Source: Escherichia coli (GTDB lineage Bacteria; Pseudomonadota; Gammaproteobacteria; Enterobacterales; Enterobacteriaceae). Taken from it: a DNA stretch of 64,000 nucleotides. Positions 40,702 to 40,848 of the stretch are shown here, piece by piece. The position numbers and the translations under genes were made by a program. Under the pieces are notes generated by a model. It searched no databases. It saw only the letters and a list, made by a program, of their open reading frames with translations, and was not told the DNA's origin. Position 1 is the first letter of the stretch, and each line of letters begins with the position of its first letter. The stretch lies in assembly GCF_003334815.1 (NCBI RefSeq), contig NZ_QOWO01000001.1. One strand, 5' to 3'.

Positions 40702-40848
40702 TGACGACGACGGGGCTTCGGCCCCGTCTGAACGTAAGGCAACGTAAAGATACGGGTTATCTGCCGCATTCTTCCCCCTTCTCGCTTCAATTTCGACCAG
40801 CCATCCTCTATTCTGATGGGTATTTACCACTGGTCCCGGAAGACAAAA

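Follow-up and report, generated by a model that had tools for sequence, protein, structure and literature searches.

The tolC gene of Escherichia coli is followed by a GC-rich stem-loop that is best explained as an exonuclease-blocking structure lacking a U-tract. It lies at a leaky and probably Rho-assisted terminator, where it would set and protect the 3′ end of the tolC mRNA. This reading is held at a probability of about 70%. Its parts differ in strength: that the hairpin acts as an exonuclease barrier is highly probable, while the involvement of Rho has only somewhat better than even odds. The Rho step is less secure because the ygiBC promoter falls within the region used for the bicyclomycin comparison, and because the distal 3′ end at 40840 is possibly an endonuclease cut. 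All positions refer to the window, the whole stretch of 64,000 nucleotides that was analyzed.

In the proposed mechanism, RNA polymerase would transcribe through the hairpin, and roughly half of the polymerases would go on into ygiBC. The others would be released shortly downstream, most likely by Rho loaded on a C-rich tract at 40760–40837, leaving one detectable distal end at 40840. PNPase would then trim the tail back until it is blocked by the cUUCGg-capped 8-bp stem. RNase II would take the last 3 nt, resulting in the stable end ...GCCCCGUCUGAAC-3′ at 40732/3. By analogy with its class, the hairpin would be expected to increase the stability of the tolC mRNA. Some polymerases may also be released directly at the hairpin, as a weak, hairpin-driven contribution.

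The hairpin and its setting

The stop codon of tolC (TGA, 40699–40701, + strand) closes an ORF of 39181–40701, corresponding to the gene annotated at NC_000913.3 3178115–3179596 in MG1655. The gene reached by read-through is ygiB (CDS 40849–41520, + strand; NC_000913.3 3179744–3180415). Published flanking sequences and the NC_000913.3 annotation give the window position as the MG1655 coordinate minus 3138895. The tolC-ygiB spacer is 147 nt long and also contains the promoter of ygiB. In a 501-nt piece around the hairpin, the genes are tolC and ygiB. A former ORF, ygiA (b3036; window 40701–40961), overlapped the hairpin and is now unannotated.

The stem-loop GACGGGGC-UUCG-GCCCCGUC (40709–40728, + strand) starts after 7 nt from the tolC stop. 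As read from the sequence, it consists of the left arm GACGGGGC (40709–40716), the loop TTCG (40717–40720) and the right arm GCCCCGTC (40721–40728), all on the + strand. The stem is made of eight perfect pairs, seven G:C and one A:U, and the loop is closed as a cUUCGg tetraloop, which is of the extra-stable type. It is followed by TGAACGTAAGG, in which a T-run is absent. The single-stranded tail UGAAC (40729–40733, + strand) likewise has no U-run, and the steady-state 3′ end of the tolC mRNA lies at 40732/40733. The sequence-only reading had described a GC-rich 8-bp UUCG stem without a U-tract right after the tolC stop, within 40708–40730, and this description is confirmed.

The folding energy of the 20-mer is -16.6 kcal/mol (z = -4.3), with none of 200 shuffles as stable, and 97% of its ensemble is the 8-bp structure. 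In a 40-nt context the energy is -18.0 kcal/mol, and in a 71-nt context the 8-bp hairpin remains the dominant structure. A predicted outer helix pairing 40691–40696 with 40751–40756 was dropped, since conservation of this pairing breaks down already within Escherichia. The window contains 11 perfect hairpins whose stem has 8 bp or more, including seven or more G:C pairs, against 0.38 per dinucleotide shuffle. The tolC hairpin is not a chance feature. A hairpin-plus-T-run scan did not call it; the same simple promoter/terminator scan also misses the ygiB promoter, which reflects the thresholds of the scan and is not evidence of absence. A search of 38000–44000 against Rfam 15, with E-values up to 10, gave no match overlapping 40700–40760 and only spurious eukaryotic snoRNA and miRNA matches elsewhere in that range.

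Within the window the 20-mer is unique, even when up to 3 mismatches are allowed. It is present as a single chromosomal copy per genome and is invariant across approximately 5,400 complete E. coli genomes, the sole common polymorphism nearby being a T>C change at 40702, outside the stem. The 501-nt piece around it matches 5,426 of 5,426 complete E. coli genomes, with at least 99% identity in 5,365. BLAST also reported about 49 plasmid matches to the hairpin, and the one inspected is in plasmid NZ_JBXRYV010000003.1 (L084:392-424). There the 19-mer ACGGGGCTTCGGCCCCGTC, an exact match to the tolC hairpin, is followed by TCTTTTTGC. It lies toward the 5′ end of the coding region for a nuclease of the phospholipase D family, beside virB11. 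This plasmid match is probably a coincidence.

Three other identities were considered for the element and rejected. It has a single chromosomal copy and no REP consensus, so a REP remnant was set aside. An 8-bp stem is too short for RNase III, and a site for that enzyme was discarded on this ground. A 3′-UTR-derived sRNA was also rejected, since there is no U-tail for Hfq; the absence of tolC from the 3′-UTR outlier file of the TRS study counts against it as well (Supplementary Data 4, PMC10687069).

A second hairpin without a U-tract is found at the end of ygiC (42694–42722). This structure, TACCGGATGGC-ACTC-GCCATCCGGTA, has 11 bp and an energy of about -20 to -21 kcal/mol. Term-seq detects a 3′ end at 42722 (3181617). 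On the minus strand, the convergent ygiD has its stop at 42724, 4 nt away from the hairpin, which may serve both ygiC and ygiD.

The tolC 3′ end, read-through and the ygiBC promoter

The 3′ end of the tolC mRNA, the stops of PNPase and RNase II, the read-through, the sensitivity to bicyclomycin and a separate start site for ygiBC are all documented in published data. In Term-seq data, a tolC 3′ end classed as “primary” lies at 3179628 (window 40733), on the C of CUGAAC and 5 nt past the stem (Adams et al. 2021, PMC7815308). This end is present in two of the three growth-condition tabs, including LB at OD 0.4 (PMC7815308, Supplementary file 1). RNAtag-seq with TRS gives an independent terminus at 3179628/9 with a signal of 0.87–0.99; the entry has a longest U-run of 1 and is annotated “Alternative primary in TU” (PMC10687069). 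By SMRT-Cappable-seq, transcripts from the tolC start site at 3178000 end at 3179625 (PMC6131387). An end at 40732/3, 4–5 nt beyond the stem, is common to three independent sources: Term-seq, TRS and the exonuclease stops of PMC10667835. The Term-seq and TRS tables also list an “orphan” 3′ end at window 39088 (MG1655 3177983, + strand). It is located in the nudF-tolC spacer, 132 nt upstream of the tolC ORF, and shortly precedes the tolC start site (3178000/1).

An RNase-targetome study indicates how this end is reached. For PNPase, a 3′ stop is recorded at 3179627 and a start at 3179735, 108 nt apart, with an end ratio of 0.935, and this is one of only 42 such stop/start pairs genome-wide (PMC10667835, Supplementary Table 4). 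The distal 3′ end at which PNPase trimming starts is window 40840 (+ strand), in the Shine–Dalgarno region of ygiB. For RNase II, the stop is at 3179628 and the start at 3179631, indicating removal of the last 3 nt (PMC10667835). The distal end could be an RNase E cut; it is more probably made by Rho than by an endonuclease.

The intrinsic-terminator score at the tolC 3′ end, of the Chen type, is 1.32 against the authors’ cut-off of 3.0 (PMC7815308). Together with the PNPase and RNase II stops, this supports the earlier suggestion that the stem-loop is an mRNA-stabilizing or processing element and not an efficient terminator. The Rho score at the same end is 2.16 (“Yes”), which passes the authors’ threshold, and the peak of the Rho region at 3179617 has a score of 2.30 (p = 1.6e-7) with bicyclomycin (PMC7815308). 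In 800-nt windows, the downstream/upstream reads were 107/204 untreated and 194/161 with bicyclomycin (PMC7815308). The ratio is roughly doubled by the drug, with the limit that the downstream 800 nt include the ygiBC promoter (start site 40821), which bicyclomycin might induce. Such proximity to a stop codon is uncommon in that study, where about 4.5% of Rho regions are no more than 50 nt from one (PMC7815308).

The sequence beyond the hairpin has the composition of a Rho loading site. Over the 78 nt of 40760–40837 (+ strand), the C/G ratio is 2.64, above the 99th percentile of the window. This C-rich, G-poor and unstructured region overlaps the ygiB promoter and is a candidate rut region; judging by its composition, it probably acts as one.

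Read-through into ygiBC, which had been proposed from the missing U-run, is borne out by full-length transcripts. Among the SMRT-Cappable-seq reads for tolC, 12 end at 3179625, five end within 50 bp of it and 11 pass through, with a median read-through of 1029 nt, and both tolC-ygiB and tolC-ygiB-ygiC variants are recorded (PMC6131387). On these 28 reads, roughly half of the tolC transcripts (about 50–60%) stop at the hairpin and the remainder continue into ygiBC. The earlier proposal therefore needs two qualifications: the site is still a major 3′ boundary of tolC, and transcription of ygiBC comes mainly from a promoter of its own. Overexpression of BaeR raised tolC 1.9-fold and did not raise ygiA/B/C (PMC2731931).

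The ygiBC promoter (40786–40822, + strand), as read from the sequence, has a -35 element TTCAAT at 40786–40791 and a -10 element TATTCT at 40809–40814, separated by a 17-nt spacer. These hexamers predict a start at about 40821, and two datasets place it exactly there. An abundant ygiBC transcript has its primary start at 3179716 (window 40821) and ends at 3181617/8 (PMC6131387), and a start site at 3179717 (window 40822) is given in PMC10667835. As ygiBC has its own start site at 40821/2, it is not dependent on read-through.

A putative CpxR-type box, GTAAG-N5-GTAAA (GTAAGGCAACGTAAA, 40734–40748, + strand), abuts the tail of the hairpin and begins one base past the mapped tolC 3′ end. The CpxR consensus is GTAAA-N5-GTAAA, and the box is the one match in the window against 0.13 expected. 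It is invariant in alignments of related loci, as AACGTAAG-N-CAACGTAAAG, and it lies about 80 nt upstream of the ygiBC start site at 40821/2. The box is part of the ygiB promoter region and limits the room for a U-tract. In Citrobacter rodentium, a putative CpxR site has been reported, and a ygiB-lux reporter fusion is Cpx-dependent, with regulation unlike that of tolC (bioRxiv 10.1101/2021.12.13.472529). From its sequence features, ygiBC looks like a Cpx-regulated unit of its own, though it is usually annotated within the tolC operon. It is conceivable, but quite improbable, that the hairpin and the box work as one unit, with phosphorylated CpxR (CpxR~P) acting as a roadblock that raises the stopping of tolC transcripts at the hairpin while it activates the ygiBC promoter. 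If so, envelope stress would uncouple tolC from ygiBC at one site, and the tight packing would explain the gain or loss of the U-tract between genera in the gap of 5–6 nt between stem and box.

Conservation of the hairpin in the Enterobacteriaceae

With YgiB as a probe, 80 loci from different Enterobacteriaceae species were collected, and the tolC-ygiB spacer was extracted from 79. The order of its parts is constant: the tolC stop, a variable segment, the invariant box, a C-rich segment, a promoter-like block and the ygiB start. Both the box and the promoter block are conserved in 79 of 79 loci. The variable segment, from the tolC stop to the box, forms a strong hairpin in all 79 as well. For the 62 nt preceding the box, the most stable hairpin has a median energy of -19.0 kcal/mol, and 95% of loci are at -13 or lower. 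For the 62 nt following the box, the median is -1.2 kcal/mol and no locus reaches -13. The control within the tolC coding sequence gives -10.4 kcal/mol, with 16% of loci at -13 or lower. The region after the box is C-rich, G-poor and unstructured across all 79 loci, with a median C/G of 2.29.

The hairpin itself varies by genus. In Escherichia and most Citrobacter, hairpin and tail are identical to those of E. coli. Siccibacter and Superficieibacter carry CAGGC(A/G)GGG...CCC(T/C)GCCTG with the tail CTGAAC as in E. coli, and Pseudescherichia-like genomes have the stem GAGATGGGGGC...GCCCCCGTTTC. In Kosakonia, Phytobacter and two “Enterobacter sp.” genomes, (A)ACGGGGGC-N4-6-GCCCCCGT is followed by TTTTTACGTAAG, a textbook hairpin-plus-U-run; the Kosakonia sacchari hairpin has an energy of -17.8 kcal/mol in a 32-nt context. 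Salmonella, several Enterobacter, Lelliottia and some Citrobacter have REP-like inverted pairs at the hairpin position. Buttiauxella, Cedecea, Leclercia and others have unrelated hairpins, some with T-runs. The gap between stem and box reads TTTTTA, TTTCAA, TCTGAA or CCTGAA in different genera.

The REP-like (BIME-like) pairs, which also occur in Huaxiibacter, were recognized by eye in about a dozen loci (L004, L005, L015, L018, L019, L027, L031, L040-L042, L064 and L069). They lie between the tolC stop and the box, with energies of -26 to -37 kcal/mol, and look like the outcome of repeated swapping of one kind of 3′ hairpin for another. Enterobacter hormaechei subsp. hoffmannii (L028:2374-3001) has a spacer of 626 nt, with about 430 extra GC-rich, hairpin-rich bases between two copies of CCCTCTCCC...GGGAGAGGG. 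Two records look mislabeled or contaminated. One, titled “uncultured Clostridia bacterium” (L001, a MAG), has a YgiB 100% identical to that of E. coli and a near-identical spacer bar a 17-nt deletion; the other, titled “Chryseobacterium sp. 18061” (L045), has a typical Enterobacteriaceae tolC-ygiB locus.

Covariation was assessed in 27 distinct sequences from the Escherichia/Citrobacter, Siccibacter/Superficieibacter, Pseudescherichia-like and Kosakonia/Phytobacter groups. The alignment was anchored on the box, with a single N-padded indel in the loop, and was adjusted to the hairpin fold, the loop length being one free parameter for each sequence. It took the place of a plain MAFFT alignment, in which left arms were out of register in the E. 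coli/Citrobacter rows and in one further locus (L016). Double-sided, compensatory changes occur at seven of the 10 stem pairs, and 89% of cells are paired. None of 500 shuffles reaches the observed covariation, and sliding the partner by 1–3 columns lowers pairing to 39–60%. As read from this alignment, a folded strand is under selection at the tolC-ygiB site. The U-run has been gained or lost between genera, and with the homologous hairpin of Kosakonia/Phytobacter bearing one, the site seems to have switched terminator type during evolution.

Competing explanations and comparison with known systems

The site could also be explained by processing and stabilization without Rho. All polymerases would then enter ygiBC, an endonuclease such as RNase E would cut within the spacer, either around 40840 or in the stretch GAACGUAAGG, which contains A/U, and exonucleases would trim back to the hairpin, so that the tolC segment outlives the ygiBC segment. 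Most PNPase start/stop pairs of this kind are ascribed to trimming after an RNase E cut (PMC10667835), full-length tolC-ygiBC transcripts exist, and by position the hairpin is an intercistronic stabilizer. Such a scheme is nonetheless unlikely when set against the rough doubling of the downstream/upstream ratio by bicyclomycin and a rut-like flank, rich in C, poor in G and unstructured. A little less likely again is a weak intrinsic terminator, in which the cUUCGg hairpin itself releases some polymerases, perhaps with NusA or NusG, and Rho and the exonucleases are minor. E. coli RNA polymerase requires a U-tract for efficient hairpin-driven release, and the tail UGAACGUA contains no U-run, with just two U among eight positions. 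The published score also falls short of its cut-off, the region is Rho-sensitive, and a PNPase-dependent precursor end exists 108 nt downstream. On the other side stand the canonical-looking TTTTT after the homologous hairpin of Kosakonia, Phytobacter and relatives, an RNase II “start” (3179631, window 40736) at 8 nt past the stem, the usual release distance, and the share of full-length reads, about half, whose ends coincide with the site.

A third possibility gives the element no role in RNA at all: a DNA palindrome bound by a dimeric regulator beside the CpxR box, controlling the ygiB promoter. The perfect 8+8 inverted repeat, flush against a conserved regulator box, would suit this. However, the whole sequence changes from genus to genus and pairing persists, with G:C to C:G and G:C to A:U swaps among the changes, many genera have unrelated hairpins or REP-like pairs there, and RNA 3′ ends map to the site. 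A DNA-binding palindrome is very unlikely because the covariation fits a folded strand and not a fixed protein-recognition sequence. The exonuclease-blocking stem-loop at a leaky, probably Rho-assisted terminator is retained as the best explanation.

The element is of a known, catalogued kind. Four genome-wide studies list the exact site, none of which discusses it individually, and nothing here would surprise a specialist. What is added is the conservation and covariation of the stem across the Enterobacteriaceae, a clear case of a homologous hairpin that has a U-run in some genera and lacks it in others, and the close packing of the hairpin against the ygiBC promoter and an invariant CpxR-type box. 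Rather than a simple operon, tolC and ygiBC are better seen as two overlapping transcription units whose boundary leaks at roughly 50%. This matters for judging polar effects of tolC deletions, insertions and reporter fusions. The site also provides a concrete example for the suggestion of Dar and Sorek that a hairpin can switch between an intrinsic-type and a Rho/exonuclease-type 3′ end.

In comparison with intrinsic terminators, including the Kosakonia/Phytobacter ACGGGGGC-N5-GCCCCCGU-UUUUA, the E. coli hairpin is alike in position, in its homologous stem ACGGGG...CCCCGU and in its comparable energy. Its stem of 8 bp (seven G:C) and 4-nt loop fit the usual range of about 5–14 bp with a short loop. 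The difference lies in what follows. Intrinsic terminators have a U-tract of about 7–8 nt, whereas the tail here, TGAACGTA, has T at just two of eight positions and contains no run, and E. coli and Citrobacter have CUGAAC in place of UUUUUA. The terminator score is below the cut-off, and the published Rho score of 2.16–2.30 speaks against Rho independence, with the ygiB promoter in the measured region as a confounder.

The closest likeness is to the class described by Dar and Sorek in 2018, in which a stem-loop without a U-tail marks the 3′ end, release occurs further downstream, PNPase and RNase II trim back, and a rut-like region with C>G lies just beyond the stem-loop (PMC6061677). The tolC hairpin shares four of the five features of these protective stem-loops: a GC-rich, stable stem-loop a few nt before a precise 3′ end, no U-tail, C-rich, G-poor and unstructured sequence downstream, and 3′-5′ exonuclease trimming from a distal end in published data (PMC10667835). 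The fifth, Rho dependence, is suggestive but confounded, as read-through on Rho inhibition passes the score threshold in an 800-nt region that includes an independent promoter. The tolC site differs from the class in that the hairpin lies 7 nt past the stop in a 147-nt spacer shared with the promoter of the next gene. It is also leaky, with roughly 40–50% read-through, and sits inside an annotated operon.

The REP elements between malE and malF are intercistronic stabilizers that act in selective RNA processing and stabilization. Genuine REP and BIME elements have many dispersed copies and a REP consensus, and the tolC hairpin occupies one chromosomal place per E. coli genome. Like these stabilizers and the stem-loops of PMC10667835, the tolC hairpin is intercistronic, blocks 3′-5′ exonucleases and is associated with more upstream than downstream mRNA. 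It differs from the malE-malF type in being single-copy in E. coli, in carrying no REP consensus and in that its downstream genes have a promoter of their own.
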